A DNA stretch of 19,564 nt from a virus (taxonomy: Duplodnaviria > Heunggongvirae > Uroviricota > Caudoviricetes), in the IMG/VR virus record IMGVR_UViG_2874920711_000010. One strand, given 5' to 3'. Positions within the stretch are counted from its first letter, which is position 1, and each line of letters begins with the position of its first letter. Position numbers and translations under genes: made by a program. A model generated the notes under the pieces. The model saw only the letters and a list, made by a program, of their open reading frames with translations, was not told where the DNA came from and made no database searches. Positions 614-19,564 of this stretch are shown one piece after another.

Positions 614-997
614 TTACCGCCGTAAGTGCTCCGGCTTCCTCCACTGGTAAGTATTTTTCGCGCTCTCCCTCCGTTGTTGAGAACGGCGACGATATGCCAG
701 CAACTCAAGGACTCTTGTTCGTATGTTGCGCATATCCACGCCGTTAAGCTCAATACCGTCACGGCGCATCACCTCAGCCACCACACGCGCGTAATTTTCA
801 GCGGTGACGCTGTCCGGCTGCGTGGCCACCTGTTTGCCTGTTGCCTGACAGATTCCGGTAATACGGAGGATTACTTTCAGTAGTTCGGCGTCGGTCATGG
901 TTATGGTTTCCATAGTGATGGGGAACAATTTCTGTAATCTGCGAAGCTGGCGATCGGTCAGACTCAAATGCCTGGCAACTTCAGTCTGAGTAGCCAC
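614..997 (-). CDS. HTH-domain DNA-binding protein, 127 aa; possible terminase-small-subunit-like or packaging-redirection-like protein
   Basis: ORF with apparent GTG start preceded by GAGGTG; N-terminus EVARHLSLTDRQLRRL looks like a helix-turn-helix. Function not recognised with certainty. Confidence 0.4.
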   Translation of the reverse strand: MATQTEVARHLSLTDRQLRRLQKLFPITMETITMTDAELLKVILRITGICQATGKQVATQPDSVTAENYARVVAEVMRRDGIELNGVDMRNIRTRVLELLAYRRRSQQRRESAKNTYQWRKPEHLRR

Positions 998-1252
998 TGT
1001 TCACCTCGCCCAAAAATCTCCCCTCATGCGTTTTAAACATGCATCTTGCGAACAACTTTATGAAACGCGGCATATATGTCCGGTTTGAGTGTTTAATTTT
1101 TGCGCATGTCCGGTTCGCAGAAAGCGCATTTCTATATTTTTCAAATGGTTAACCTTCAGAGAAACCGGACATGGTTTCCGAAAAATTTTCATAAATAGTG
1201 AAATTCTGCGCCGCTCCCGCCCGTGGCAGGCCACCCCACCGGAAGGACCCGC

Positions 1253-3552: not shown

Positions 3553-3896
3553 TCAGAACGGAATATCATCACCGTAGGGGTCATCGTCTCCCGCTGGTGG
3601 CTGATTACCCTGTGTGCCTGTGGTTTTGCGTCTGTTCCCGCCAGGGCGTGCCGCTCGGGCACTGATTACGCTGTCGGCAATAACCTGATAACCCTGCCGC
3701 GTTTCCCCGTTCTGTCCGGTCCACTGGCTGACCTGCATCGTGCCGGATACGCTGGCAACGTCGCCTGTCCGTCCTGTGCCTGGCTGCATGGCAGCGATAC
3801 CGCCATACGCGCCAGCGTCATCGGTGTGCCCTTGCTGGTCTGTTTTACCTGCGGGTCGTCCACCAACCGTCCGTAAGCTGCTATCTGTGCTGTCAT
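3553..3896 (-). pseudogene. ssb: Single-stranded DNA-binding protein (SSB) gene remnant, frame-disrupted or internally deleted
   Basis: SSB-like N-terminus (MTAQIAAYGRLVDDPQVKQ...) with RBS GGAGAGG in one frame from 3896; SSB-like OB-fold end (SQWTGQNGETRQGYQVIADSV) and acidic tail DDDPYGDDIPF in another frame ending at 3553. The middle of the OB fold appears missing. Confidence 0.5.
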
Positions 3897-4001
3897 GATT
3901 CCACCTCTCCGGTTTTAACGTAAGCGCCCCATCAGCGACGTCTTGTGAAAATTGTCCTGTCTGGCAACAATCGCGCCCATCTATATTGATGGACACGAAC
4001 G

Positions 4002-4676
4002 ATGAATTCCCAGACAACAAAAGATATTCCCTGCTTCCGTTCTTATTTGCCTGATGCCCTGCGTTTAAGATTTGAAGATAAACTGACCATCCGGGCCATC
4101 GCTCAGCGTCTGGGTCTCAGTCATTCCACAATACATACGCTTTTTCAGCGATTTCTTGCATCCGGTATCGCATGGCCATTGCCCGATTCAGTTTCATTCG
4201 CTCAACTTGACGCCATCCTTTATGCCAACAGAAAGAAGGAATTAACAGAGCCTCAAATCAGAGAAGGCTCATGGCGAAAAGAACGGCGAACCAGCTATAG
4301 CCGTGAATTTAAGGTCCGTCTGGCTAAGCAGGCGTTACAGCCTGGGGCTGTTGTTGCCCGGATCGCCAGAGAACACGATATCAATGATAACCTGCTGTTT
4401 AAATGGAAAAGCCAGTACGAGGACGGCTTACTGAGCGATGATGACATACAGGAATGCATGCCTGTCCCGGTGGCACTGACTGATACGCCGGAGCCGACCA
4501 GACCAGTTACAAATCCCTTCTGGCGTAACAAGCATGATGAGCGCCCTGAGGGGGCTCCCGGAAACGTCCCACGGTGCGAGCTGCATCTTAAATCAGGTGT
4601 GGTAAAACTGTTTGACCCTCTCACTCCGGAACTGTTACGGGCGCTAATCCGCGAAATGAAAGGGGGTATCCGATGA
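4002..4676 (+). CDS. IS66-family accessory protein TnpA (HTH), 224 aa
   Basis: First ORF inside the IS66 left end, overlapping tnpB by 4 nt. Confidence 0.7.
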   Translation: MNSQTTKDIPCFRSYLPDALRLRFEDKLTIRAIAQRLGLSHSTIHTLFQRFLASGIAWPLPDSVSFAQLDAILYANRKKELTEPQIREGSWRKERRTSYSREFKVRLAKQALQPGAVVARIAREHDINDNLLFKWKSQYEDGLLSDDDIQECMPVPVALTDTPEPTRPVTNPFWRNKHDERPEGAPGNVPRCELHLKSGVVKLFDPLTPELLRALIREMKGGIR

Positions 4677-5020
4677 TAACGCTGCCGACCGGTACCAGAA
4701 TCTGGATCATCGCTGGCATCACAGATATGCGTTGTGGCTTCAATGGCCTGGCTTCGAAGGTGCAGAACACGCTGAAAGATGACCCGTTCTCCGGGCATAT
4801 CTTCGTCTTCCGGGGCCGCAGTGGCAAAATGGTGAAAATACTGTGGGCCGATCGTGACGGGTTATGCCTGTTCGCCAAACGCCTGGAACGGGGCCGCTTC
4901 GTCTGGCCGGTGACCCGGGAAGGGAAAGTGCACCTGACGCCAGCTCAGTTATCCATGCTACTGGAGGGGATCGCGTGGCAACATCCCAAACGGACAGAAC
5001 GGCCTGGCATCCGGATATAA
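4673..5020 (+). CDS. IS66-family TnpB (Orf2), 115 aa
   Basis: Characteristic small IS66 second ORF (MITLPTG...IWIIAGITDMRCGFNGL), translationally coupled to tnpA. Confidence 0.85.
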   Translation: MITLPTGTRIWIIAGITDMRCGFNGLASKVQNTLKDDPFSGHIFVFRGRSGKMVKILWADRDGLCLFAKRLERGRFVWPVTREGKVHLTPAQLSMLLEGIAWQHPKRTERPGIRI

Positions 5021-5039
5021 CCCGTGATAAAACAAGGGA

Positions 5040-6595
5040 ATGAACAATGAACTCCCCGATGATATTGAGCTGCTTAAAGCCATGTTGCGTAAGCAACAGA
5101 GTCGGCTTCGACAGTATGCCTGTCAGGTCGCGGGCTATGAGCAGGAAATTGAACGGCTGAAAGCGCAACTCGACAGGTTGCGTCGTATGTTGTTCGGCCA
5201 GAGTTCAGAGAAAAAGCGTCATAAGCTTGAAAATCAGATCCGACAGGCAGAAAAACGACTGTCGGAACTGGAAAACCGGCTGAACACAGCCAGAAATCTT
5301 CTGGAAGATGCATCGTCAGTCACAGATTCACCTGACACCAGTCCCCGTCAGAAAACCCGATCGCCAGTAAGCCTGAATCCCCGGGAGACACATCGCCTTC
5401 TGCCTGCTGAAACCAGTTGCCCGGCCTGTGGAGGTGTTCTGAAAGAAATGGGGGAAACAATCTCAGAGCAACTGGATATCATTAATACCGCCTTTAAAGT
5501 TATCGAAACCATACGTCCCAAACTGGCCTGTAGCCGGTGTGATGTCATCGTTCAGGCACCACTTCCCCTAAACCGATCGAACGCGGTTATGCCAGTGCAG
5601 GGTTACTTGCACGGATCCTGGTCAGCAAATATATGGAACATATCCCTTTATATCGCCAGTCAGAAATATACGCGCGACAGGGCGTGGAGCTGAGCCGTAA
5701 TACCATGGTGCGCTGGGTATCAGAAATGGCAGACAAACTCCGTCCTCTGTATATAGCGCTGAATGACTATGTTCTGGAGGCAGGAAAGGTGCACGCAGAT
5801 GACACTCCGGTGAAAGTACTGGCCCCGGGGAACGGAAAGACGAAAACGGGTCGTCTGTGGGTATACGTCAGGGATGATCGTAATGCGGGTTCATCCCTGC
5901 CGGCAGCCGTCTGGTTCGCGTATTCGGCAGATCGCAAAGGAGAACATCCGCAGCTCCACCTGGCAAAGTATCAGGGCGTACTGCAGGCTGATGCCTATGC
6001 AGGTTATAACGTACTGTACGAAACGGGCCGGGTGAAGGAAGCCGGGTGCCTGGCCCACGCCCGCCGAAAAATCCATGACGAGGATGTGCGCCGTCCGACA
6101 GAAATGACTCAGGAAGCGCTCAGACGGATAGCAGAGTTATACGACATAGAAGCGGAGATACGTGGCAGTCCGGCAGAGGAACGGCTTGCAGTCAGAAAAG
6201 CCAGAAGCGTCCAGTTGATGCAGTCGTTGTACGACTGGATACAGTTGCAGAGGAAAACGCTGTCGAAACATGCGGAGATGGCGAAGGCGTTCGACTATAT
6301 CCTGAATCACTGGAATGCGCTGAACGAGTTCTGTCGTGACGGCTGGGTGGAAATAGACAACAACATCGGTGAAAACGCGTTACGATCGGTGGCGGTTGGA
6401 AGAAAAAATTATCTCTTTTTCGGCTCAGACAAGGGAGGAGAAAGTGCGGCGATCATCTACAGTCTGCTGGTCACCTGCAAACAGAACGAAGTGGAGCCGG
6501 AGGACTGGTTGCGCGAAGTGATCGAGAAGCTCAATGACTGGCCGTCGAACCAAGTGCATGAACTGCTGCCCTGGAACTTCTCGTCTGTAAAATAA
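5040..6595 (+). CDS. IS66-family transposase TnpC, split by an apparent frameshift near 5565-5568 (C4 run)
   Basis: ORFs 5040-5693 and 5633-6595 together make a TnpC of about 517 aa; the conserved [29 protein letters not shown] block is only in frame if one base is restored in the C-run. Confidence 0.75.
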
Positions 6596-6640
6596 TCCTT
6601 ACGCTACGTACTTCTCGGGACGCTTACGTATATTAAGTTA

Positions 6641-6799
6641 GGTAGACAGCTTTTTTTACTGTCTACCCACTATCTACCCTCTCTACCTGATTTTACCTGA
6701 ATCAGACAGGGAGGTAGACACGGGGTAGATAGTGGATAAAAGCACTCTACCCCGCTGAAAGCCGCGCCATTACTGGCATGAGGGCCAGCAAGGTAGACA
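6641..6799. repeat. Iteron cluster: octamer GGTAGACA/TGTCTACC at 6641-6648, 6660-6667, 6713-6720, 6792-6799, plus degenerate copies at 6671-6678 and 6724-6731
   Basis: Exact 8-mers in both orientations within about 160 bp of the 367-bp spacer between the two IS66 copies. Confidence 0.6.
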
Positions 6800-6847
6800 A
6801 GGGGAGGCACAACTCAAAACTTTTTAAACGAGGGGGTAAAAATAAAC

Positions 6848-6994
6848 ATGCACACTTCAGGAAAATTTAATAAATCACTCAAAAAACGCAGAGACAGAAC
6901 AGAACCGAAATATCGCGCGTTAGACATGACAGAGCACGCTTTAAAGGTGGCAATCAGAACGATAGACCGCCACGCGGGGGAAGGATACGCGAAG
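6848..6994 (+). CDS. 5-prime fragment (49 codons) of a small gene truncated at the IS66 copy 2 end
   Basis: ORF 6848-7090 starts after a GAGGGGG RBS; from 6995 onward its frame is IS66 sequence. Confidence 0.25.
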
Positions 6995-7025
6995 GTAAGC
7001 GCCCGAGAAGTACGTAGCGTAAGGA

Positions 7026-8580
7026 TTATTTTACAGACGAGAAGTTCCAGGGCAGCAGTTCATGCACTTGGTTCGACGGCCAGTCATTGAGCTTCTCGAT
7101 CACTTCGCGCAACCAGTCCTCCGGCTCCACTTCGTTCTGTTTGCAGGTGACCAGCAGACTGTAGATGATCGCCGCACTTTCTCCTCCCTTGTCTGAGCCG
7201 AAAAAGAGATAATTTTTTCTTCCAACCGCCACCGATCGTAACGCGTTTTCACCGATGTTGTTGTCTATTTCCACCCAGCCGTCACGACAGAACTCGTTCA
7301 GCGCATTCCAGTGATTCAGGATATAGTCGAACGCCTTCGCCATCTCCGCATGTTTCGACAGCGTTTTCCTCTGCAACTGTATCCAGTCGTACAACGACTG
7401 CATCAACTGGACGCTTCTGGCTTTTCTGACTGCAAGCCGTTCCTCTGCCGGACTGCCACGTATCTCCGCTTCTATGTCGTATAACTCTGCTATCCGTCTG
7501 AGCGCTTCCTGAGTCATTTCTGTCGGACGGCGCACATCCTCGTCATGGATTTTTCGGCGGGCGTGGGCCAGGCACCCGGCTTCCTTCACCCGGCCCGTTT
7601 CGTACAGTACGTTATAACCTGCATAGGCATCAGCCTGCAGTACGCCCTGATACTTTGCCAGGTGGAGCTGCGGATGTTCTCCTTTGCGATCTGCCGAATA
7701 CGCGAACCAGACGGCTGCCGGCAGGGATGAACCCGCATTACGATCATCCCTGACGTATACCCACAGACGACCCGTTTTCGTCTTTCCGTTCCCGGGGCCA
7801 GTACTTTCACCGGAGTGTCATCTGCGTGCACCTTTCCTGCCTCCAGAACATAGTCATTCAGCGCTATATACAGAGGACGGAGTTTGTCTGCCATTTCTGA
7901 TACCCAGCGCACCATGGTATTACGGCTCAGCTCCACGCCCTGTCGCGCGTATATTTCTGACTGGCGATATAAAGGGATATGTTCCATATATTTGCTGACC
8001 AGGATCCGTGCAAGTAACCCTGCACTGGCATAACCGCGTTCGATCGGTTTAGGGGAAGTGGTGCCTGAACGATGACATCACACCGGCTACAGGCCAGTTT
8101 GGGACGTATGGTTTCGATAACTTTAAAGGCGGTATTAATGATATCCAGTTGCTCTGAGATTGTTTCCCCCATTTCTTTCAGAACACCTCCACAGGCCGGG
8201 CAACTGGTTTCAGCAGGCAGAAGGCGATGTGTCTCCCGGGGATTCAGGCTTACTGGCGATCGGGTTTTCTGACGGGGACTGGTGTCAGGTGAATCTGTGA
8301 CTGACGATGCATCTTCCAGAAGATTTCTGGCTGTGTTCAGCCGGTTTTCCAGTTCCGACAGTCGTTTTTCTGCCTGTCGGATCTGATTTTCAAGCTTATG
8401 ACGCTTTTTCTCTGAACTCTGGCCGAACAACATACGACGCAACCTGTCGAGTTGCGCTTTCAGCCGTTCAATTTCCTGCTCATAGCCCGCGACCTGACAG
8501 GCATACTGTCGAAGCCGACTCTGTTGCTTACGCAACATGGCTTTAAGCAGCTCAATATCATCGGGGAGTTCATTGTTCAT
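7026..8580 (-). pseudogene. IS66-family transposase TnpC, copy 2, with the shared frameshift plus a second 1-bp deletion (7801-7803)
   Basis: Three ORF pieces (7927-8580, 7586-7987, 7026-7589); copy 2 reads GGCCCCGGG where copy 1 reads GGCCCCGGGG. Confidence 0.7.
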
Positions 8581-8599
8581 TCCCTTGTTTTATCACGGG

Positions 8600-8947
8600 T
8601 TATATCCGGATGCCAGGCCGTTCTGTCCGTTTGGGATGTTGCCACGCGATCCCCTCCAGTAGCATGGATAACTGAGCTGGCGTCAGGTGCACTTTCCCTT
8701 CCCGGGTCACCGGCCAGACGAAGCGGCCCCGTTCCAGGCGTTTGGCGAACAGGCATAACCCGTCACGATCGGCCCACAGTATTTTCACCATTTTGCCACT
8801 GCGGCCCCGGAAGACGAAGATATGCCCGGAGAACGGGTCATCTTTCAGCGTGTTCTGCACCTTCGAAGCCAGGCCATTGAAGCCACAACGCATATCTGTG
8901 ATGCCAGCGATGATCCAGATTCTGGTACCGGTCGGCAGCGTTATCAT
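8600..8947 (-). CDS. IS66-family TnpB, copy 2
   Basis: Protein identical to 4673-5020. Confidence 0.85.
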   Translation of the reverse strand: MITLPTGTRIWIIAGITDMRCGFNGLASKVQNTLKDDPFSGHIFVFRGRSGKMVKILWADRDGLCLFAKRLERGRFVWPVTREGKVHLTPAQLSMLLEGIAWQHPKRTERPGIRI

Positions 8948-9618
8948 CGGATACCCCCTTTCATTTCGCGGATTAGCGCCCGTAACAGTTCCGGAGTGAG
9001 AGGGTCAAACAGTTTTACCACACCTGATTTAAGATGCAGCTCGCACCGTGGGACGTTTCCGGGAGCCCCCTCAGGGCGCTCATCATGCTTGTTACGCCAG
9101 AAGGGATTTGTAACTGGTCTGGTCGGCTCCGGCGTATCAGTCAGTGCCACCGGGACAGGCATGCATTCCTGTATGTCATCATCGCTCAGTAAGCCGTCCT
9201 CGTACTGGCTTTTCCATTTAAACAGCAGGTTATCATTGATATCGTGTTCTCTGGCGATCCGGGCAACAACAGCCCCAGGCTGTAACGCCTGCTTAGCCAG
9301 ACGGACCTTAAATTCACGGCTATAGCTGGTTCGCCGTTCTTTTCGCCATGAGCCTTCTCTGATTTGAGGCTCTGTTAATTCCTTCTTTCTGTTGGCATAA
9401 AGGATGGCGTCAAGTTGAGCGAATGAAACTGAATCGGGCAATGGCCATGCGATACCGGATGCAAGAAATCGCTGAAAAAGCGTATGTATTGTGGAATGAC
9501 TGAGACCCAGACGCTGAGCGATGGCCCGGATGGTCAGTTTATCTTCAAATCTTAAACGCAGGGCATCAGGCAAATAAGAACGGAAGCAGGGAATATCTTT
9601 TGTTGTCTGGGAATTCAT
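8944..9618 (-). CDS. IS66-family TnpA, copy 2
   Basis: Protein identical to 4002-4676. Confidence 0.7.
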   Translation of the reverse strand: MNSQTTKDIPCFRSYLPDALRLRFEDKLTIRAIAQRLGLSHSTIHTLFQRFLASGIAWPLPDSVSFAQLDAILYANRKKELTEPQIREGSWRKERRTSYSREFKVRLAKQALQPGAVVARIAREHDINDNLLFKWKSQYEDGLLSDDDIQECMPVPVALTDTPEPTRPVTNPFWRNKHDERPEGAPGNVPRCELHLKSGVVKLFDPLTPELLRALIREMKGGIR

Positions 9619-9735
9619 CGTTCGTGTCCATCAATATAGATGGGCGCGATTGTTGCCAGACAGGACAATTTTCACAAGACGTCGCTGATGGGGCGCTTAC
9701 TAATATACTGAATTAAATGTATTTTCCTTTACTCA

Positions 9736-9752
9736 GGTAGACAGGGTAGACA
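9736..9752. repeat. Tandem iterons GGTAGACA-G-GGTAGACA directly downstream of the replicase gene
   Basis: Two exact copies of the same octamer found in 6641-6799, lying between the IS66 copy 2 end (9700) and the rep stop (9767). Confidence 0.6.
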
Positions 9753-9766
9753 GCAATTACAAAAAA

Positions 9767-10999
9767 TTATAAAAACGCGTCGCACTCGTCTGTTGTTATT
9801 GCGTTAGTCTGCGTTACCCCCTTAACTTTCCGCGTAATATATTCATGTCCGTAAACTTTTGCGGCAGGCTTCATAGCCTTGCCAAAGTCATTTACGTTTA
9901 GCGGTTTGCTCCTGCCTGCGTATGCCATAAACGCCAGATAGACGCGGTAAAGGCTGTTCCTGGTCGTGTACTTCACTGAATCACCACCGCCACCCATCAT
10001 CAGGCCGCGCGCTTCCTCCAGAAAATTCAGGAACTGGCAAAACTCAATAACCGGATCCGTCTGTTGCTTTATTGCCAGTGCTTCATCACCGTCACGCTGT
10101 TCCAGTAGTAAAGCCCGTGCCTTCTCAGGGTCGGTAAAGTTCGCCAGCAATCGGCGGATAATAACGGGGATTTCAGCCGCAATCTTTTCCGGTAGCTCCC
10201 TGTCTTTTTCGGCCTCACTGACGATATTGTCGAAACGGAAAATCACGCGACGACGTGCCACACCTCCGGCCCGTTCGGTGAATATCATCGGGTTGTTGTC
10301 GGTCGCCAGCACCACCGCCCTGATTACCGCCGTGAAACGCTTTTCATATTTCGGGTTAATTTCCACGGGGTCGCCGCCCGTGATTTTCTTGATGCCCGTT
10401 CCTTCGCCTGTATATTTCGGCTGGTCAGCCAGGACGATAAGACGACTCCCGACAACCTGCGCACGTCCACCAGCATCATCAAGCGATGTCATTTCAGCGC
10501 TTACCGTGTTCTGTTTCCCTGCCAGAAGGCTGGCTATGTGTGTGAATGTACTTTTACCGCTCCCGCCGTCTCCGGTGGCCTCAATAAACATCTGCCAGTC
10601 GTACCGGTTCGCCATAATCATGTAAAGCGCGGCACATATGCGCATCATCTTGCGCGGGTCTTTTCCGGCTGCGTGATCAAGCCATTTATGAAAGTTTGGC
10701 GCGTTGTCGCGGATATTCTCCCCTGGTGCTGGTGGCGTGTACTCAATGCCGTTGTGCGTGGTGATCCAGTTCTCCGGCGTGTGCGGGGAAAATTCCCCCG
10801 TTTTCAGGTTAAGCACACCATTAGTGAACGGTAGCAAATCACTGGACGGCTCGCCCATCGGGTCAGCAGTAACTTTTAACGCTTCAACGGCGTTATTAAT
10901 TGCCCGCTTGCTGAATGTGGCCCGTGTTCTGAATAAACCGCCACCATTTCGCGGCTCAGTTCCATTGTGCTGACCGGACACCATATCCCGCCGCGCCAT
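9767..10999 (-). CDS. Replicase/helicase of the P4 alpha C-terminal type (D5_N-like region plus P-loop NTPase), up to 410 aa
   Basis: LPFTNGVLNLKTGEF motif and Walker A ATGDGGSGKST; true start may be the internal Met at 10858 (after the upstream stop) or the gene may be fused to 10876-11520 by a frameshift. Confidence 0.8.
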   Translation of the reverse strand: MARRDMVSGQHNGTEPRNGGGLFRTRATFSKRAINNAVEALKVTADPMGEPSSDLLPFTNGVLNLKTGEFSPHTPENWITTHNGIEYTPPAPGENIRDNAPNFHKWLDHAAGKDPRKMMRICAALYMIMANRYDWQMFIEATGDGGSGKSTFTHIASLLAGKQNTVSAEMTSLDDAGGRAQVVGSRLIVLADQPKYTGEGTGIKKITGGDPVEINPKYEKRFTAVIRAVVLATDNNPMIFTERAGGVARRRVIFRFDNIVSEAEKDRELPEKIAAEIPVIIRRLLANFTDPEKARALLLEQRDGDEALAIKQQTDPVIEFCQFLNFLEEARGLMMGGGGDSVKYTTRNSLYRVYLAFMAYAGRSKPLNVNDFGKAMKPAAKVYGHEYITRKVKGVTQTNAITTDECDAFL

Positions 11000-11520
11000 A
11001 CGTGAACGATTTCACTTTCCGGATGCACACAAACGCCATCAAATCGACCAGCAAGCATCTGTGCGCGCTCACTGTCTGCCATCTGCGAAAGTTGCGCCTT
11101 TTGCTTTACCGGAAGCTCAATGACCAGACCATCAGAAAGATTCTGGCGTTCACGGGCCAGATATTCGCGCCAGTTCTGCACCTCCTGGCCGTGCATACCC
11201 TCAAGATAAAAATTTGCATCTTGTACACCTGCCGCCGCCAGCTTCTGACCAATCGCCTTGATCATTACAGGCTCAAGATGTCCGGCTCTGTATATGCGTG
11301 CTGATTTTCTGCCATCCGGCACAATTTGCAGATTATCCAGTTCGGATAGCTGCTGCTCTCCAAGCCACACAGGAGGCTCATTATCTCCGGCTGTACGCGC
11401 GTCATGTTCCTGCCACTGTTTCGCGTGTGCCCAGGCATCACTACCCGCAAAGATAATTACCTCTGTGTCTTTGTGTTTTATTCCGCGTGGCTGTTTTTTT
11501 ACGTTCGGTGCCAGTTTCAT
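10876..11520 (-). CDS. Primase-like or replication-associated protein, 214 aa, upstream partner of the replicase
   Basis: ORF overlaps the replicase ORF by 124 nt in another frame; domain not recognised with certainty. Confidence 0.5.
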   Translation of the reverse strand: MKLAPNVKKQPRGIKHKDTEVIIFAGSDAWAHAKQWQEHDARTAGDNEPPVWLGEQQLSELDNLQIVPDGRKSARIYRAGHLEPVMIKAIGQKLAAAGVQDANFYLEGMHGQEVQNWREYLARERQNLSDGLVIELPVKQKAQLSQMADSERAQMLAGRFDGVCVHPESEIVHVWRGGIWCPVSTMELSREMVAVYSEHGPHSASGQLITPLKR

Positions 11521-11801
11521 TTTTTACCCCTGAATACGTTAAGCATCTTTTTTATTTCCTGAATATTGGCACGTGCTTTCTCCCTGCTGGTGGGCACGTT
11601 ACGCGGTACGGCCTGCACAAGAGAAAAATCACGGTCGAACTGATAAACAGGCATCACGCAATCATATTCGTAGCCTTCACGACGGTAGGTTACGCGCCGT
11701 TCCTCCACGCCCTTAATTATTACCGTGCTGCCGTACTTATCGCGGTAAATATTGAGGTAGCCTGAGTTTAACGGACACTCCTTCCTGAAATAGAATGGCA
11801 T
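11517..11801 (-). CDS. Small hypothetical protein coupled to the primase gene (ATGA overlap); its first codons lie inside the IS3-family element
   Basis: Stop overlaps the primase start at 11517-11520; the annotated start at 11801 is beyond the inferred IS left end (about 11763-11779), so the native N-terminus and promoter are probably lost. Confidence 0.35.
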   Translation of the reverse strand: MPFYFRKECPLNSGYLNIYRDKYGSTVIIKGVEERRVTYRREGYEYDCVMPVYQFDRDFSLVQAVPRNVPTSREKARANIQEIKKMLNVFRGKK

Positions 11802-11816
11802 CAGAAGGAGCTAATA

Positions 11817-12079
11817 ATGAGCAGAAAAACCCAACGTTACTCTAAAGAGTTCAAAGCCGAAGCTGTCAGAACGGTTCTTGAAAATCAACTTTCGATCAGT
11901 GAAGGCGCTTCCCGATTATCCCTTCCTGAAGGCACTTTAGGACAATGGGTTACCGCCGCCAGAAAAGGACTCGGTACTCCTGGTTCCCGCACGGTGGCTG
12001 AACTGGAATCTGAAATTCTGCAACTGCGTAAGGCGTTAAATGAAGCTCGCCTTGAGCGAGATATATTAAAAAAAGCAAC
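11817..12079 (+). CDS. IS3-family OrfA (HTH), interrupted near its 3-prime end by IS30; the last codons resume at 13302
   Basis: Removing IS30 and one AC copy restores ...DILKKATAYFAQESLKNTR and a continuous -1 frame into OrfB. Confidence 0.7.
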
Positions 12080-13299
12080 TGTAGATTCAATTGGTCAACG
12101 CAACAGTTATGTGAAAACATGGGGTTGCGGAGGTTTTTTGAATGAGACGAACATTTACAGCAGAGGAAAAAGCCTCTGTTTTTGAACTATGGAAGAACGG
12201 AACAGGCTTCAGTGAAATAGCGAATATCCTGGGTTCAAAACCCGGAACGATCTTCACTATGTTAAGGGATACTGGCGGCATAAAACCCCATGAGCGTAAG
12301 CGGGCTGTAGCTCACCTGACACTGTCTGAGCGCGAGGAGATACGAGCTGGTTTGTCAGCCAAAATGAGCATTCGTGCGATAGCTACTGCGCTGAATCGCA
12401 GTCCTTCGACGATCTCACGTGAAGTTCAGCGTAATCGGGCAGACGCTATTACAAAGCTGTTGATGCTAATAACCGAGCCAACAGAATGGCGAAAAGGCCA
12501 AAACCGTGCTTACTGGATCAAAATTTACCATTGCGAAAGCTTGTTCTGGAAAAGCTGGAGATGAAATGGTCTCCAGAGCAAATATCAGGATGGTTAAGGC
12601 GAACAAAACCACGTCAAAAAACGCTGCGAATATCACCTGAGACAATTTATAAAACGCTGTACTTTCGTAGCCGTGAAGCGCTACACCACCTGAATATACA
12701 GCATCTGCGACGGTCGCATAGCCTTCGCCATGGCAGGCGTCATACCCGCAAAGGCGAAAGAGGTACGATTAACATAGTGAACGGAACACCAATTCACGAA
12801 CGTTCCCGAAATATCGATAACAGACGCTCTCTGGGGCATTGGGAGGGCGATTTAGTCTCAGGTACAAAAAACTCTCATATAGCCACACTTGTAGACCGAA
12901 AATCACGTTATACGATCATCCTTAGACTCAGGGGCAAAGATTCTGTCTCAGTAAATCAGGCTCTTACCGACAAATTCCTGAGTTTACCGTCAGAACTCAG
13001 AAAATCACTGACATGGGACAGAGGAATGGAACTGGCCAGACATCTAGAATTTACTGTCAGCACCGGCGTTAAAGTTTACTTCTGCGATCCTCAGAGTCCT
13101 TGGCAGCGGGGAACAAATGAGAACACAAATGGGCTAATTCGGCAGTACTTTCCTAAAAAGACATGTCTTGCCCAATATACTCAACATGAACTAGATCTGG
13201 TTGCTGCTCAGCTAAACAACAGACCGAGAAAGACACTGAAGTTCAAAACACCGAAAGAGATAATTGAAAGGGGTGTTGCATTGACAGATTGAATCTACA
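12080..13299 (+). mobile_element. IS30 (1220 bp here, canonical 1221 bp) nested inside the IS3-family element, with 2-bp target duplication AC
   Basis: Left end TGTAGATTCAATTGGTCAACGCAACAG at 12080, right end ...CAGATTGAATCTACA at 13299, AC at 12078-12079 and 13300-13301. Confidence 0.85.
12142..13292 (+). CDS. insI: IS30 transposase, split by a 1-bp deletion in a G-run at about 12436-12439
   Basis: ORFs 12142-12564 and 12486-13292 together give the roughly 383-aa IS30 transposase; the window reads CGGGCAGACGC where an intact frame requires one more G. Confidence 0.8.
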
Positions 13300-13376
13300 A
13301 CAGCGTATTTTGCACAGGAGTCGCTGAAAAATACGCGTTAATCGAACAATGGCGACAACAATTTCCCATTGAAGCG

Positions 13377-14195
13377 ATGTGTCAGGTATTTGGTGTATCC
13401 AGGAGCGGTTATTACAACTGGGTACAGCATGAACCCTCAGACAGAAAACAAAGTGATGAGCGGCTAAAACTGGAGATTAAGGTGGCCCATATCCGCACTC
13501 GCGAAACATATGGAACCCGGCGGCTCCAGACGGAGCTGGCAGAGAATGGCATCATCGTTGGACGTGACCGACTGGCACGTCTTCGTAAGGAGCTAAGGCT
13601 ACGCTGTAAGCAGAAACGCAAGTTCAGAGCGACTACGAACCCGAACCACAATCTGCCAGTTGCGCCAAATCTGCTGAACCAGACGTTCGCTCCTACAGCA
13701 CCAAATCAGGTCTGGGTGGCGGACCTGACGTATGTTGCCACACAGGAGGGATGGTTGTACCTCGCTGGCATCAAAGATGTTTATACGTGCGAAATTGTCG
13801 GCTACGCCATGGGAGAGCGCATGACAAAAGAGCTGACAGGTAAAGCCCTGTTTATGGCGCTCAGGAGCCAGCGCCCACCTGCCGGGCTAATCCACCACTC
13901 TGATCGAGGTTCACAGTACTGCGCATACGATTACCGGGTCATACAGGAGCAGTTTGGTCTGAAAACATCAATGTCGCGTAAAGGTAACAGTTACGACAAC
14001 GCTCCGATGGAAAGCTTCTGGGGAACGCTGAAAAATGAGAGCCTGAGCCACTATCGTTTTAATAACCGGGATGAAGCCATCTCAGTAATACGGGAATACA
14101 TTGAGATTTTCTACAATCGTCAGCGTCGTCACTCTCGTCTGGGGAATATCTCCCCGGCAGCCTTCAGGGAAAAATATCATCAGATGGCTGCTTAA
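13377..14195 (+). CDS. IS3-family OrfB (DDE transposase catalytic domain)
   Basis: DDE-type motifs (WVADLTY, HHSDRGSQY, YDNAPMESFW); in the intact element it is expressed as an OrfAB fusion by -1 frameshifting, the -1 frame being open from about 13302. Confidence 0.8.
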   Translation: MCQVFGVSRSGYYNWVQHEPSDRKQSDERLKLEIKVAHIRTRETYGTRRLQTELAENGIIVGRDRLARLRKELRLRCKQKRKFRATTNPNHNLPVAPNLLNQTFAPTAPNQVWVADLTYVATQEGWLYLAGIKDVYTCEIVGYAMGERMTKELTGKALFMALRSQRPPAGLIHHSDRGSQYCAYDYRVIQEQFGLKTSMSRKGNSYDNAPMESFWGTLKNESLSHYRFNNRDEAISVIREYIEIFYNRQRRHSRLGNISPAAFREKYHQMAA

Positions 14196-14310
14196 AAAAA
14201 GAACAAATGGTAGTGTCCGCTATTGCCAGTACACCTCATATCCCCGCGCATGAATTTAGTGCGAGTTTTGCCGCTGGCAGTTAAGCCAGGATATTTAAGT
14301 TTCATTATTT

Positions 14311-14544
14311 TTATTCTCCGGTGTGGGGCGCTTTATACTGGTCGTGTAATGTCTCTATTTCCTGCAACTCATTTATTACAGGCTCAAGAAGCGTTATTAA
14401 TGCCGTGACAATCCTTGATTTCTGTTTATCACGCTCATTATCGCCAAATGTTTCCAGACACATTTGCAATATTTCCAACATATTTTCACTGTGAGAAAGT
14501 GCAAGAAATGCGCGGTCTGTTATTTCAATGTAAATATCACGCAT
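14311..14544 (-). CDS. Small hypothetical protein, 77 aa, in an AT-rich pocket between the IS3 and IS110 elements
   Basis: ORF only; no clear RBS, and its upstream region is IS110-family sequence. Confidence 0.3.
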   Translation of the reverse strand: MRDIYIEITDRAFLALSHSENMLEILQMCLETFGDNERDKQKSRIVTALITLLEPVINELQEIETLHDQYKAPHTGE

Positions 14545-14549
14545 AACCC

Positions 14550-16010
14550 CGTTACTTTATTCGTACCCCTTATAATGGGGTGTTAGCCAGCCAGACCCGG
14601 CATGATTACTGCCCCCAGTCGTCCATGATCCGGGGGTGATGTCACCGGGTCTGGTGGGGCGCTGGTAACCGCTAATAGGGTCAGGTCAGGCACTTTTGCC
14701 GGGACCGTCTGTAACGTGGATGCCGGTACCTGCTCCCGTGGTTATCTGGTTAACCCATATACAAGGGAGACAGAATGACCGAATCCAGCGATTACGAATC
14801 CGTCCAGGTCTTTATCGGCGTTGATGTCGGTAAAGATACGCATCACGCTGTTGCCATTAATCGTTCAGGTAAACGCCTGTTCGATAAAGCATTACCCAAC
14901 GACGAAAACAAACTCAGGTCGCTAATATCTGACCTGAAACAACATGGTCAGATACTGCTGGTTGTTGATCAGCCAGCTACCATCGGTGCGTTACCTGTCG
15001 CCGTTGCCCGCTCAGAAGGAGTCCTTGTCGGATATCTCCCTGGACTGGCCATGCACCGCATAGCCGACTTACACGCCGGTGAAGCTAAAACTGATGCTCG
15101 TGACGCTGCCATCATTGCCGAAGCTGCCCGTACCCTGCCTCACGCGCTACGCACGCTGAAACTGGCTGACGAGCAAATCGCCGAACTCTCCATGCTCTGC
15201 GGCTTCGATGATGATCTTGCCGCACAGACAACGCAGGCCAGCAACCGTATCCGCGGCCTTCTGACCCAGATACATCCGGCACTGGAGCGCGTTCTCGGTC
15301 CGAGACTTGAGCACCCGGCGGTACTCGATCTTCTCCAGCGATATCCCTCACCAGAAAAACTCGCTTCGCTGGGTGAGAAGAAGCTGGCAGCCCAGCTCTG
15401 CAAACTTGCGCCTCGTCTGGGTAAACGCCTTGCAGCAGACATAGCTCAGGCACTGGCCGAACAAACCGTCGTCGTTCCCGGCACGAATGCCGCTGCCGTA
15501 GTACTGCCACGTCTGGCACTCCAACTCATCACGCTGCGTAAGCAAAGAGACGAGGTGGCGCTTGAGGTAGAACAGCGAGTTCTTGCTCACCCTCTTTACC
15601 CGGTCCTGACCAGTATGCCCGGAGTCGGTGTCAGGACCGCAGCCAGACTCCTCACCGAGGTCGCCTGCCGCGCCTTCGCCTCTGCCGCACATCTCGCTGC
15701 TTATGCTGGCCTTGCGCCGGTAACTCGGCGATCCGGCTCGTCAATACGCGGTGAGCATCCCTCGCGACGGGGTAATAAAGCTCTCAAACGGGCGTTGTTC
15801 CTGTCGGCCTTCGCCGCGCTCAGGGATCCGCTCTCCAGGGCTTACTACACCCGCAAAATGAGTCAGGGAAAACGACACAATCAGGCGCTTATCGCCCTGG
15901 CGAGACGACGCTGCGACGTTCTGTTCGCCATGATGCGCGACGGGACTTTTTATACCCCGCAGGGGTCATAACATGCTTGACAACTTAATAGGGCACCCCC
16001 ATTTTCACAA
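14550..16010 (+). mobile_element. IS110-family insertion sequence (boundaries approximate)
   Basis: Single 398-aa transposase with a GC-rich leader of about 220 bp; sharp base-composition change near 14545. Confidence 0.6.
14775..15971 (+). CDS. IS110-family transposase, 398 aa
   Basis: N-terminal FIGVDVGKDTHHAV RuvC-like motif; RBS AAGGGAGA upstream. Confidence 0.85.
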   Translation: MTESSDYESVQVFIGVDVGKDTHHAVAINRSGKRLFDKALPNDENKLRSLISDLKQHGQILLVVDQPATIGALPVAVARSEGVLVGYLPGLAMHRIADLHAGEAKTDARDAAIIAEAARTLPHALRTLKLADEQIAELSMLCGFDDDLAAQTTQASNRIRGLLTQIHPALERVLGPRLEHPAVLDLLQRYPSPEKLASLGEKKLAAQLCKLAPRLGKRLAADIAQALAEQTVVVPGTNAAAVVLPRLALQLITLRKQRDEVALEVEQRVLAHPLYPVLTSMPGVGVRTAARLLTEVACRAFASAAHLAAYAGLAPVTRRSGSSIRGEHPSRRGNKALKRALFLSAFAALRDPLSRAYYTRKMSQGKRHNQALIALARRRCDVLFAMMRDGTFYTPQGS

Positions 16011-16366
16011 TCAGCAACAAGAATATTTTTAGCGTCATTCAGCGACCGCGTTGCGATGTATCGGATACATTCCAGGGCGAACAATGTGTATTCTTCCCGT
16101 TCTTCCTTTCGTGCAAGCTCTGCTGTGCATTCAATATCAATAAGCGCGTGCATCAGCGTAGTGAGTGCGGCGGCGGCTGCGTCCGGTGTGGTTTTATTGT
16201 GCATAGGTTTCCCCTGGCGAATACGGGCGACAAAAATCAGATGTGCGTGCGGCAGCTGCGCGCGGGCTTCGCGTTCAGTGGCTGCGGTAACGGTGAATAT
16301 TGCAATGCTGTCTGTCAGGCACTGCATAAAGCGCCAGACAAAGTAAGGGCGTGCGGATACAGCCAT
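15950..16366 (-). CDS. Ash-like protein paralog 1 (about 138 aa); its 3-prime end overlaps the IS110 element
   Basis: Start at 16366 preceded by AAAGGAG with 8-nt spacing; shares VTAxTEREAR...ARIRQG with the paralog at 16584-16841. Ash-family assignment is from memory, not verified. Confidence 0.45.
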   Translation of the reverse strand: MAVSARPYFVWRFMQCLTDSIAIFTVTAATEREARAQLPHAHLIFVARIRQGKPMHNKTTPDAAAAALTTLMHALIDIECTAELARKEEREEYTLFALECIRYIATRSLNDAKNILVADCENGGALLSCQACYDPCGV

Positions 16367-16583: not shown

Positions 16584-16841
16584 TCAAACCCGGTCGCCAT
16601 GTGGGCGACGGGGAAGAATACAGCCCCACGGTAATTTTTTGCAAGTTGTTTTTACGCATGGCCAACCCCCCTGACGAATACGGGCCGCGAATACAGCAAC
16701 ACAACCGGACGGGCAATGGTTACGCGCTTCGCGTTCAGTCCAGGCGGTGACGTGGATGATTTGGGACTCTGACGCACCAAAGGCGATAAAGCGCCAGAGA
16801 AAGGCGGTTTGAGAATGTACAAGGGTAGGGGTAGTAGCCAT
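16584..16841 (-). CDS. Ash-like protein paralog 2 (about 85 aa)
   Basis: Start at 16841 preceded by AAGGAGG with 8-nt spacing; it is the C-terminal part of a 460-aa ORF whose upstream 375 codons look non-coding. Confidence 0.45.
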   Translation of the reverse strand: MATTPTLVHSQTAFLWRFIAFGASESQIIHVTAWTEREARNHCPSGCVAVFAARIRQGGWPCVKTTCKKLPWGCILPRRPHGDRV

Positions 16842-17006
16842 GCCGGCAGCCTCCTTGATTGATGGAATGTAACCACCGCCGGAGGTCCTAAGCTCGCTGG
16901 CGGTGGACTGTACAGGGTTAGGACTACTGGCAATCAAGGGAACCAGCCTACCCGAAGGTAGCCCCATACAGCCCACCATTGTATAGGTGTGCGTGTGCGT
17001 CGATAC

Positions 17007-17029
17007 AAAAAAAGACGCGTGCGGCGTCT
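17007..17029 (-). terminator. Intrinsic terminator (minus strand)
   Basis: AAAAAAA followed by AGACGC-GTGCG-GCGTCT; on the minus strand a hairpin plus U7. Confidence 0.55.
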
Positions 17030-17289
17030 GTATCGCCTCGATTGTCAGCGGGGTCCTAATCCCGGCACCCGTTTTATAAGGTGCACGCGAATCATAGCCT
17101 TGGCTGGCAGTGGCGATCAACTGGTTTTTCATACCCGCTTTATTCAGGTTGTGCGAGTCCCGCCCTTGCAGGTGTGTGGTATGATTTAACATAGCTATCT
17201 CGATACTGTTGCTATCGTTGGTGGTTAGACGCCCTGCATGTGTTGCGAGCACTGCGGGGCGTTGCTTAATTTGAGTGACAAAACTCAAA

Positions 17290-17322
17290 CTGTGCGCACA
17301 GATTAAAATCATGTGTGCGCAC
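17290..17322. promoter_or_regulatory. Two perfect 10-bp palindromes TGTGCGCACA (17290-17299, 17313-17322) plus a half-site at 17361-17367
   Basis: Read from the sequence, upstream of the small plus-strand gene at 17398; the same GTGCGCAC core occurs at 31-38. Confidence 0.5.
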
Positions 17323-17397
17323 ATGTCAATACTTAACATCTCATTTTTTTTGCTGTATTGTGTGCGCCCATAAAGTCCATTTAAGTGAGGTGCATCA

Positions 17398-17595
17398 ATG
17401 TCTAGCGGTAACACAAACAACAAATCAGCAAAGAAAAATATTCGATTCCCACATGAGCTTATAGATGGGGTTGATGCCAGCGTTGAACAAGAAAAATTAA
17501 CTAATCCTAGTGCTAATTTTTCCGCATGGGTCTTAGATGCCTGTGGACGCAAATTAAAATATGAACAGCGCCGGAAGGCCAAAGAATCAGAATAA
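17398..17595 (+). CDS. Small putative DNA-binding protein, 65 aa (ribbon-helix-helix-like)
   Basis: ORF downstream of the palindromic operator; basic N-terminus followed by IRFPHELIDGVDASVEQEKL. Confidence 0.45.
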   Translation: MSSGNTNNKSAKKNIRFPHELIDGVDASVEQEKLTNPSANFSAWVLDACGRKLKYEQRRKAKESE

Positions 17596-17652
17596 TCACT
17601 ATCAGCGCCGTGGCGTGAGGTGCTACGGCGCATTGCTTTACAGGTACACACA

Positions 17653-17832
17653 ATGACCAACAAAGAATCAACCAATACACCATCGCAAAAAACGAACAGA
17701 GAGCACGAAAATATGGCGCTCGAGCATGAATCAGAAAGATTCGCACCATGTGCTTTTGCCCTTGAGCAATTCCTTAAAGAGTACAGGGAAACGCGCTCAT
17801 TGCAGGTATGGCAACGAACTGAACCAGACTGA
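17653..17832 (+). CDS. Small hypothetical protein, 59 aa
   Basis: ORF 17620-17832 trimmed to the ATG at 17653; followed by the bidirectional terminator. Confidence 0.3.
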   Translation: MTNKESTNTPSQKTNREHENMALEHESERFAPCAFALEQFLKEYRETRSLQVWQRTEPD

Positions 17833-17924
17833 TTGCATTGCCCACCAGCCTGATAGCGTCTATCATCCCCGTGCTTATGTTTGGGATCACATACACATAA
17901 GGCGCAGCGGGTTAATTGTTCAGA

Positions 17925-17954
17925 AAGGCGGCTCCATATCGGGGCCGCTTTTTT
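17925..17954. terminator. Bidirectional intrinsic terminator between the convergent small genes and alpA
   Basis: GGCGGCTCC-ATATC-GGGGCCGC followed by TTTTTT on the plus strand, A/T-rich on the other side. Confidence 0.55.
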
Positions 17955-17980
17955 CGTGTTTGTCATATCTGTGATACCCG

Positions 17981-18187
17981 TTAAGCAGCCGTTCCGCGTG
18001 CTTCCTGTTCGCGTTCTTTCTGCCAGGCCAACACATCATCCTCATACCATCCGCGACGGCGTAAACCAACGCGAAAACCCTGCGGAAATTCTCCGGCGTT
18101 GATCATGCTTTGCAGCGTGCTGTCTGCCTTGATGTGGATAATTTTTTTTACTTCCTGGCGAAAGATAATTTTTCTGATTGCTTCCAT
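17981..18187 (-). CDS. alpA: AlpA-family phage transcriptional regulator, 68 aa
   Basis: Size and motif pattern (RQEVxK...STLxxMIxAGEFPxGxxxGxRxxGWxExDVxAW) typical of AlpA in P4-like/PICI islands; position next to the integrase. Confidence 0.75.
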   Translation of the reverse strand: MEAIRKIIFRQEVKKIIHIKADSTLQSMINAGEFPQGFRVGLRRRGWYEDDVLAWQKEREQEARGTAA

Positions 18188-18661: not shown

Positions 18662-19564
18662 CTACACGGCTCGGATACCCCTTTTACCACTGGCGAGGGT
18701 TACGCCCGTCGCCGCAGCCTCGACAAATTCGCCCCACCAGCGCATCAGCACGATGCGTTTTTCTATGTAGTTGCTCCGGTTGTATGCCCGTCTAACTTCG
18801 TTGGTGTCGACGTGGGCAAGTGCCGCCTCTATTACGTCCGGCTCGAATCCTTCCTCGTTCGCTGCTGTGCTGAATATGGCGCGTAATCCATGAGACACCA
18901 GCACGCCAGCGAATCCCATACGCCGCAATGCTGCGTTAGCGGTCTGGCTGTTCATCGGCTGCTGTGGGTCTTTCAGACTTGGGAAAACGTAATTGCGGTG
19001 GTGGCTGATTGGTTTCATGGCCTCCAGCATCGCCATAGCCTGACCGGAAAGCGGGATAACGTGATCCCTGCGCATCTTCATGCGTCCGGCAGGTATCGTC
19101 CATTGCTTCGCGTCCAGGTTGATTTCATCCCACCGCGTTGATGACGCTTCGGCGGGACGGGTTACGGTCAGTAACTGCCATTCAATCAGTAATCTGGTCT
19201 GCCGTTCTGTTGCCGATACTGATAAAGCCTGCATAAGCTCCGGCAGCTGTTCGGGGCGGATTGTTGGCATATGTTTTTTTACAGGTGAGGGAAACGCCTT
19301 ACGCACATTCATAGCCGGATTGGCATCAATCAGCCCACTGTTGGCGGCGTAATCCATTACCTCATTAACGCGCTGTAAAACCCGCTTGAGTGTTTCCAGG
19401 TTGCCGCGCTCCTTGATGGGTGTAAGCACCTCAACGAACCTTCGGGCGGTGAGGGTATCTATTGGCGTGTTGCCGATGAACGGGAATACATATTTATCCA
19501 GCGAACGCCAGATATCTTTAATCGTGTTGGGGCCAGATTCTGGCTGATTTTCACCTGGTACCAT
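18662..19564 (-). CDS. int: P4-type tyrosine integrase, C-terminal 300 aa; the gene probably continues beyond the window edge
   Basis: Catalytic-domain motifs HGLRA and RAYNRSNY near the C-terminus; similar to P4/CP4-57-type integrases but lacking the N-terminal arm-binding domain. Confidence 0.85.
   Translation of the reverse strand: MVPGENQPESGPNTIKDIWRSLDKYVFPFIGNTPIDTLTARRFVEVLTPIKERGNLETLKRVLQRVNEVMDYAANSGLIDANPAMNVRKAFPSPVKKHMPTIRPEQLPELMQALSVSATERQTRLLIEWQLLTVTRPAEASSTRWDEINLDAKQWTIPAGRMKMRRDHVIPLSGQAMAMLEAMKPISHHRNYVFPSLKDPQQPMNSQTANAALRRMGFAGVLVSHGLRAIFSTAANEEGFEPDVIEAALAHVDTNEVRRAYNRSNYIEKRIVLMRWWGEFVEAAATGVTLASGKRGIRAV

Follow-up and report, generated by a model that had tools for sequence, protein, structure and literature searches.

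A phage-inducible chromosomal island of the EcCICFT073 type whose replication module appears to be broken by deletion and insertion sequences

Introduction

Does the putative replication region of the viral record IMGVR_UViG_2874920711_000010 hold two replication genes or one broken gene, and could the element that carries it still replicate? The stretch of DNA analyzed here, hereafter the window, is 19,564 nucleotides long, and its replication region (9767-11801) contains three minus-strand open reading frames (ORFs), at 9767-10999 (410 aa), 10876-11520 (214 aa) and 11517-11801 (94 aa), with insertion sequence (IS)-type ORFs bordering it on either side. A first-pass annotation of this DNA had reported that a pri-like ORF and a rep ORF overlap by 124 nt in different frames, which the coordinates of the 214-aa and 410-aa ORFs bear out, and had proposed either two genes, with rep starting at 10858, or a single primase-helicase gene carrying a frameshift. 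Based on comparisons with related islands, we consider it highly probable (about 0.9) that the window represents a phage-inducible chromosomal island (PICI) of the EcCICFT073 type in which every part of the replication module has been broken by deletion and by IS elements.

Results

A single primase-helicase gene with one base missing

Positions 9600-12300 of the window were used as a megablast query against 5,426 complete Escherichia coli genomes, and the segment 9701-11752 displayed 94-95% identity to E. coli DNA. In all 25 of the 25 best E. coli records this segment is annotated with a single coding sequence (CDS), named 'DNA primase family protein' or 'phage/plasmid primase, P4 family', together with a DUF4222 protein; in the relatives L001 and L002 the primase CDS has 1755 nt and encodes 584 aa. 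A global alignment to L001 shows one sole gap, at L001 position 10224 (the A of CACAGGG), a base that is absent between window positions 10924 and 10923, where the letters across the site read CACGGGCC. The two features concerned are the following.

10923..10924, minus strand: 1-nt deletion at codon 199, within D5_N; the coding strand reads CACGGG in place of CACAGGG
9767..11520, minus strand: pri-rep pseudogene (P4-alpha-like primase-helicase/initiator), 584 aa when repaired, with an N-terminal module, D5_N, a superfamily 3 (SF3) ATPase (DUF5906) and a C-terminal winged-helix origin-binding domain

Upon restoration of the missing base, a 584-aa protein is obtained that is 95% identical to WP_001617542 of a relative, and the frame break at codon 199 falls within the Pfam domain D5_N, which spans residues 153-282 when the protein is intact; no Pfam family is matched by the 214-aa ORF on its own. 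Likewise, residues 141-579 of the repaired protein align with residues 324-762 of P4 alpha as a single segment containing two gapped positions (40% identity, E 7e-113), which continues through the frame-break point. The overlap between the ORFs exists because a single base is missing relative to intact homologues, and is not a chance ORF pattern; taken together, the restored frame, the break inside D5_N and the continuous alignment to P4 alpha identify ORFs 9767-10999 and 10876-11520 as one frameshifted primase-helicase gene, not a pri plus a rep. The alignment to P4 alpha, which the first-pass annotation had suggested as the means to decide between a fusion and two genes, is accordingly in favor of one gene, and the frameshift alternative is the one that stands.

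A SaPI-like arrangement (SaPI, Staphylococcus aureus pathogenicity island) of two natural overlapping genes, a small 214-aa pri and, apart from it, a rep that begins at 10858 or 10999, would be in line with the report that pri and rep may be separate genes in PICIs (PMC6092414) and with the source-record annotation, which lists the 214-aa product and a 363-aa product starting at an in-frame ATG at 10858. Nevertheless, all close relatives harbor one 584-aa ORF, the difference in length comes down to one missing base only, and the split would lie inside D5_N and inside the continuous P4 alpha alignment. Moreover, no Shine-Dalgarno sequence is found upstream of the ATG at 10858 or of the other internal ATGs; the true start at 11520 is preceded by AGGGG approximately 10 nt upstream. 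The alignments have already refuted the two-gene arrangement, and we give it practically no credence, the proposed rep start at 10858 included.

The repaired protein matches D5_N, DUF5906 and Pox_D5 in Pfam, contains a GDGGSGKS motif (Walker A) and scores 106.9 bits against TIGR01613, slightly below the cut-off of 108.7. In a sequence search of the PDB, its helicase region matched the SF3 helicase of PriRep5 (7OLA, E 1.9e-15), a protein of SaPI5 (PMC9371898), and residues 488-579 matched the origin-binding winged-helix domain of P4 alpha (1KA8, E 7e-7), and these two matches argue that the repaired protein is a self-loading SF3 helicase-initiator related to P4 alpha. Of the features of the P4-alpha/D5 class, D5_N, an SF3 ATPase with Walker A motif and a C-terminal winged helix are present, and the uninterrupted reading frame is lost through the 1-nt deletion at 10923/10924. 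The N-terminal 140 aa gave no significant sequence or profile match to the primase domain of P4 alpha and, with an hhalign probability of 0.4%, homology of the N-terminal module to that domain did not reach significance, so that the earlier label 'pri-like', in the sense of a primase, finds little in its favor for the 5' ORF; the module may not be an active primase. This module (window 11131-11520, residues 1-130) is highly conserved and has an invariant TEVIIFAGSDAW motif, and in E. coli relatives it is found fused to three downstream types (D5/SF3, AAA_25 RepA-like and a third type). In fold prediction it bears a weak resemblance to DnaG, and nothing in it stands out as a counterpart of the acidic Toprim motifs.

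An iteron origin split and inverted by ISSfl3

The window was searched for GGTAGAYAG with at most one mismatch, using 200 shuffles as control. Fifteen matches were found where 4.3 are expected, a number reached in 0 of the 200 shuffles, and nine of the 15 are clustered, two at 9736-9753 and seven at 6641-6800. In L001, ten such iterons are located at 8826-9053, in both orientations, within a 289-bp spacer directly 3' of the gene; one 9-bp iteron has been lost as well in the window (9 against 10). The parts of the origin and the elements between them are listed below.

9709..9766, minus strand: origin stub beside the gene, with iterons 9736-9744 and 9745-9753 and half of the AT-rich spacer
6628..6994, plus strand: inverted island fragment of 367 bp, containing seven iterons (6641-6800) and, from the phrog_1231-family gene that comes next, the 5' part (ORF start 6848)
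9701..9708, no strand: ISSfl3 target duplication of 8 bp, TAATATAC, with its inverted partner at 6628-6635
3920..6627, plus strand: ISSfl3 copy A (IS66 family), tnpC broken
6995..9700, minus strand: ISSfl3 copy B (IS66 family), inverted relative to copy A and 99.93% identical to it

Window positions 6632-6993 correspond to L001 9004-8633 in reverse, and joining the reverse complement of 6628-6994 to 9709-9766 restores an origin that runs colinear with both L001 and L004. Copy B of ISSfl3 ends at 9700, 66 nt past the initiator stop codon. The insertion point coincides with the most AT-rich 30 nt of the reconstructed origin (83% AT) and is flanked by two CTGTCTACC iterons and the opposite-facing GGTAGACAG. 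This layout is, by comparison, the one described for PICI origins: those of Gram-negative PICIs follow the initiator gene on its 3' side and have an AT-rich region bracketed by two sets of iterons (PMC6092414), and in SaPIs the iterons are directly downstream of the gene, two or more on either flank of the AT-rich center and facing in opposite directions (PMC9371898). The claim that the iteron origin 3' of rep is cut by an IS66 element holds, with ISSfl3 in the AT-rich spacer and the iterons split into two and seven; the origin is real, and it is inverted as well as cut.

ISSfl3 displays the tnpA-tnpB-tnpC organization, GTAAGCG termini and 8-bp target duplication of the IS66 family, although the duplication is present at one junction pair only and tnpC is broken. 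At the second junction pair a duplication is lacking, and 104 bp (L001 8527-8630) are gone. One ISSfl3 insertion followed by inversion is insufficient to account for both, and the missing duplication and the 104-bp loss would imply an extra rearrangement step. Relative to an intact ISSfl3 (L007), both copies share the same three tnpC-breaking deletions (1, 44 and 1 bp), and copy B has two additional 1-bp deletions. Since these deletions are shared, it was a defective ISSfl3 that was duplicated, presumably either mobilized in trans or copied by the rearrangement itself. In another relative (L005 6308-6739) the initiator is 89% identical at the DNA level, yet the iterons at the same position are of the CCTCTACCC / GGGTAGAGG type, a difference that fits co-variation of iterons and initiator.

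An operon interrupted upstream of the initiator gene

The DUF4222 gene of the relatives encodes 99 aa, and its end overlaps the initiator start by 4 nt (ATGA). In the window it is found in two pieces, separated by nested IS elements, and a further element lies upstream.

11517..11752, minus strand: 3' four-fifths of the DUF4222 gene (Pfam DUF4222), with the junction at 11752/11753
14239..14305, minus strand: displaced 5' end of the DUF4222 gene (approximately 65 nt); window 14238-14545 equals L001 11050-11357, with TAT target duplication
11753..14238, plus strand: IS600 (IS3 family), with TG...CA ends, a 3-bp TAT duplication and Pfam HTH_Tnp_1 and rve; matching E. coli copies are annotated IS600
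12080..13299, plus strand: IS30-like element within IS600, with terminal inverted repeats, a 2-bp AC duplication and Pfam HTH_38 and rve
14546..16016, plus strand: ISEc20 (IS110 family), which interrupts the operon upstream of the replication genes

The ATG at 11801 and the first 16 codons of the 94-aa ORF (11753-11801) are IS600 sequence, and the 5' end of the DUF4222 gene resumes at 14239, 2.5 kb from the remainder. Thus, the small upstream gene does begin inside IS3-family sequence, as the first-pass annotation had stated, and can now be described as a DUF4222 gene cut at 11752/11753 by IS600, an element with the TG...CA ends, orfA/orfB and 3-bp target duplication of the IS3 family. In contrast, the accompanying proposal that IS3 had cut the promoter of the replication genes did not fare well. 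In the relatives DUF4222 starts 5 nt after the preceding gene, within a run of abutting genes, and a promoter scan near the replication genes revealed no minus-strand site, with counts at the level of shuffled sequence. Because of this 5-nt spacing in a tight operon, what IS600 breaks is an operon, and a cut promoter is unsupported. The insertion is a nested one, IS30 being located in IS600 and IS600 in the DUF4222 gene; the IS30 transposase is itself broken into ORFs of 140 and 268 aa. In E. coli ESDR8 (match H41) ISEc20 apparently occupies the same position of the island, which suggests that it has a preferred target there.

In spite of these interruptions one may ask whether some function is left, either by a -1 ribosomal frameshift that restores the full-length protein or by action of the 363/410-aa helicase plus winged-helix fragment on the iterons. 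In principle a -1 slip could connect the two frames, given that the downstream one lies at -1 with respect to the upstream one, and the C-terminal fragment retains the Walker A motif and the origin-binding domain. However, the 124-nt overlap contains neither a slippery heptamer (X XXY YYZ) nor a homopolymer of at least 5 nt, on which ground programmed frameshifting was rejected; the relatives need no frameshifting and, as noted, the internal ATGs are devoid of Shine-Dalgarno sequences. Furthermore, approximately 4 kb of IS DNA interrupts the upstream operon and the origin is split across 2.7 kb and partly inverted. We regard such residual activity as extremely unlikely, and retain the interpretation of a broken initiator gene.

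Type of island and integration site

The exact 214-aa product is found on chromosome CP026824.1 (GCA_002949875.1), which is rich in Shigella-type insertion sequences, beside tRNA-Pro and yejM, and E. coli Nissle 1917 and AST198 carry intact islands at the same tRNA-Pro/yejM site. Outside the IS elements, the island displays 89-96% DNA identity to its relatives. Two genes at the integrase end of the window are relevant to the type of element.

18662..19564, minus strand: tyrosine integrase pseudogene, 3' 300 codons, with a frameshift near 19530 (approximately codon 125) and a stop at codon 14 beyond the window
17981..18187, minus strand: alpA-like activator gene (68 aa), with a Phage_AlpA match that is weak (E 0.0035) and falls below the Pfam cut-off; positional orthologue of the HTH regulator of the relatives

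The stop at codon 14 was read from flanking source DNA (L003 1600-1990); the integrase orthologue of E. coli AST198 also has an internal stop. Several features are those of a PICI: a tyrosine integrase (Pfam Phage_integrase and Phage_int_M), albeit a pseudogene, at the end adjoining tRNA-Pro/yejM; an AlpA-type activator and unidirectional transcription, with all island genes on the minus strand; and pri-rep followed by an origin with two iteron sets, seen in the reconstruction and in the relatives and physically disrupted in the window. No tail, lysis, portal or large-terminase genes are present, and the only structural genes are Phage_cap_E and HDPD; in fact, the intact relatives end shortly past their capsid and head-decoration genes. 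On these grounds the island is assigned to the EcCICFT073-type PICIs at tRNA-Pro/yejM. The capsid gene had suggested a capsid-forming PICI (cf-PICI), an identity that was rejected. Only one capsid gene of the lambda E type and one decoration gene of the D type occur, no portal or terminase gene was found in the window or in the intact relatives, no protease gene is present, and the gene set is that of EcCICFT073, in which c1499 and c1500 are homologues of capsid and head-decoration genes, respectively (PMC6092414). A 16-bp direct repeat, AAACGTATAACTAAAA, flanks the intact island of Nissle 1917 (L008 2350 and 13607), and its int-side copy is present in the source genome (L003 1545-1560).

Other lesions and island genes

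Beyond the origin, the phrog_1231-family gene next to it is split, with parts at 6848-6994 and at the 3919 junction, and the gene for SSB is also damaged.

3553..3896, minus strand: SSB pseudogene with an out-of-frame 67-bp internal deletion near 3757-3766, seen in the alignment to the SSB of L005; a weak residual Pfam SSB match is left

With regard to the remaining genes, a 460-aa ORF at 16584-17966 displays homology (Ash / phrog_29966, icd-like) only from about residue 234, and its first half may be an over-extended reading frame; fragments are annotated at this position in the relatives. Window positions 901-1189 hold neither the 'small terminase'-like gene of Nissle 1917 (L008 3384-3926) nor the PerC-like gene of AST198 and S1-CAM-02-A, both of which are variable accessory regions among the relatives.

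Discussion

The arrangement of the intact relatives suggests how the module would normally operate. An operon activated by AlpA would express the DUF4222 protein and a single 584-aa SF3 helicase-initiator, whose C-terminal winged helix would bind the GGTAGAYAG iterons around the AT-rich spacer 3' of the gene, with a small gene and then the SSB gene following the origin. In the island described here, the 1-nt deletion shifts the initiator frame at codon 199; IS600 with its IS30 splits DUF4222 and, together with ISEc20, separates the replication genes from the upstream operon by approximately 4 kb of IS DNA in antisense orientation. ISSfl3 entered the AT-rich spacer, and a second inverted copy, the 367-bp inversion and the 104-bp deletion have scattered the iterons. 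The small next gene and the SSB gene are likewise disrupted, and the integrase is a pseudogene. All of these lesions are read directly from the sequence. The first-pass annotation had proposed that the satellite is decaying, and the inverted origin fragment, the 104-bp loss, the 67-bp SSB deletion, ISEc20 and the integrase pseudogene add further lesions in support of it.

The likely consequences can be judged from mutants of EcCICFT073, in which deletion of int abolished excision and transfer, deletion of pri-rep lowered transfer approximately 100-fold, pri and int were both required for AlpA-driven replication, and deletion of ori reduced the function of a cloned replicon (PMC6092414). Given that the integrase and the initiator are dead, the origin is scattered and the operon is interrupted, and in view of these published mutants, we infer that the island is no longer able to excise or replicate. 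Helper-phage-dependent induction, replication and high-frequency transfer would consequently be expected to be lost here.

Three points weigh against this interpretation. The position of the promoter for the replication genes is deduced from operon structure only, and the distal 16-bp att repeat was not found within the window, so that the island's far end may have been changed or may lie outside it. The third point is that the 1-nt deletion is known from one assembly only, and an assembly or consensus error is possible, in which case the initiator would be intact in the organism and the IS insertions alone would be real. Exact matches to the 214-aa and 363-aa products come from one contig only, and a scan of genome and metagenome collections for the exact DNA found no second copy of the frameshifted allele; a partial protein labelled Shigella boydii (P0020) is 100% identical but stops at residue 124, before the deletion site, and cannot decide the matter. 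On the other hand, the missing A sits between C and GGG and not within a long homopolymer, and the 67-bp SSB deletion and the stop and frameshift of the integrase on the same island fit relaxed selection. Even if the error were real, the damage to the origin, to the DUF4222 gene and its operon, and to the integrase would still stand. We therefore consider an assembly error unlikely and maintain that the deletion is one of the lesions of the module.

Among known systems, the EcCICFT073-type PICIs (Fillol-Salom et al. 2018, PMC6092414), of which intact copies are present in E. coli Nissle 1917 (L008), AST198 (L004) and HM670 (L002), provide the closest comparison. They share with the island the gene order int, alpA, the icd-like gene, DUF4222, the primase-helicase, the iteron origin, the small gene, SSB, the lambda-E-like capsid gene and the head-decoration gene, all in one direction. 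In contrast to them, the island described here has acquired four IS elements, which belong to three kinds, besides a nested IS30, as well as an inversion; there are three small deletions, two of its genes are frameshifted, and, unlike some of these relatives, it has no PerC-like or 'small terminase' accessory genes. P4 alpha resembles the initiator in the 40% identity over residues 141-579, in the C-terminal domain (1KA8) and in having a repeat-bearing cis-required region (crr) just 3' of its gene; nevertheless, it has 777 aa against 584, leaves the N-terminal 140 aa unmatched, and P4 uses TGTTCACC-type repeats instead of GGTAGAYAG iterons. Likewise, the SaPI Rep/PriRep5 proteins (Qiao et al. 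2022, PMC9371898) share the SF3 core (7OLA) and the same iteron/AT-rich origin layout 3' of the gene, although they are distant in sequence, the host here is Gram-negative, and the activator is AlpA where SaPIs have the Stl repressor (PMC6092414). The lesions resemble IS-driven pseudogenization in Shigella (ISSfl3, IS600, IS30 and ISEc20), with duplications of 8, 3 and 2 bp that fit the families, nesting, and an inversion between inverted copies; nothing is unusual in this regard, save the junction pair without duplication and with 104 bp missing. What is seen here is the ordinary genome decay, driven by IS elements, of a satellite whose kind is known; no new system is involved.

It could be proposed that the remnant is kept as a titrator or blocker of the initiators of incoming related PICIs, by means of the iteron fragment or of a helicase plus winged-helix fragment made from an internal start. 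We find this very unlikely; if true, the remnant would have an incompatibility or immunity function against satellites sharing GGTAGAYAG iterons.

The significance of these results beyond annotation is little. A single pseudogene should replace the two 'genes' in the annotation, the 94-aa ORF should be labelled a DUF4222 gene that is truncated and takes its start from an IS, and in satellite censuses the island should count as a non-mobilizable PICI remnant. A well-defined iteron origin (GGTAGAYAG) is provided for this PICI initiator allele, and the island is a clear illustration of the stepwise dismantling of a phage satellite where IS elements have expanded in Shigella-type genomes.

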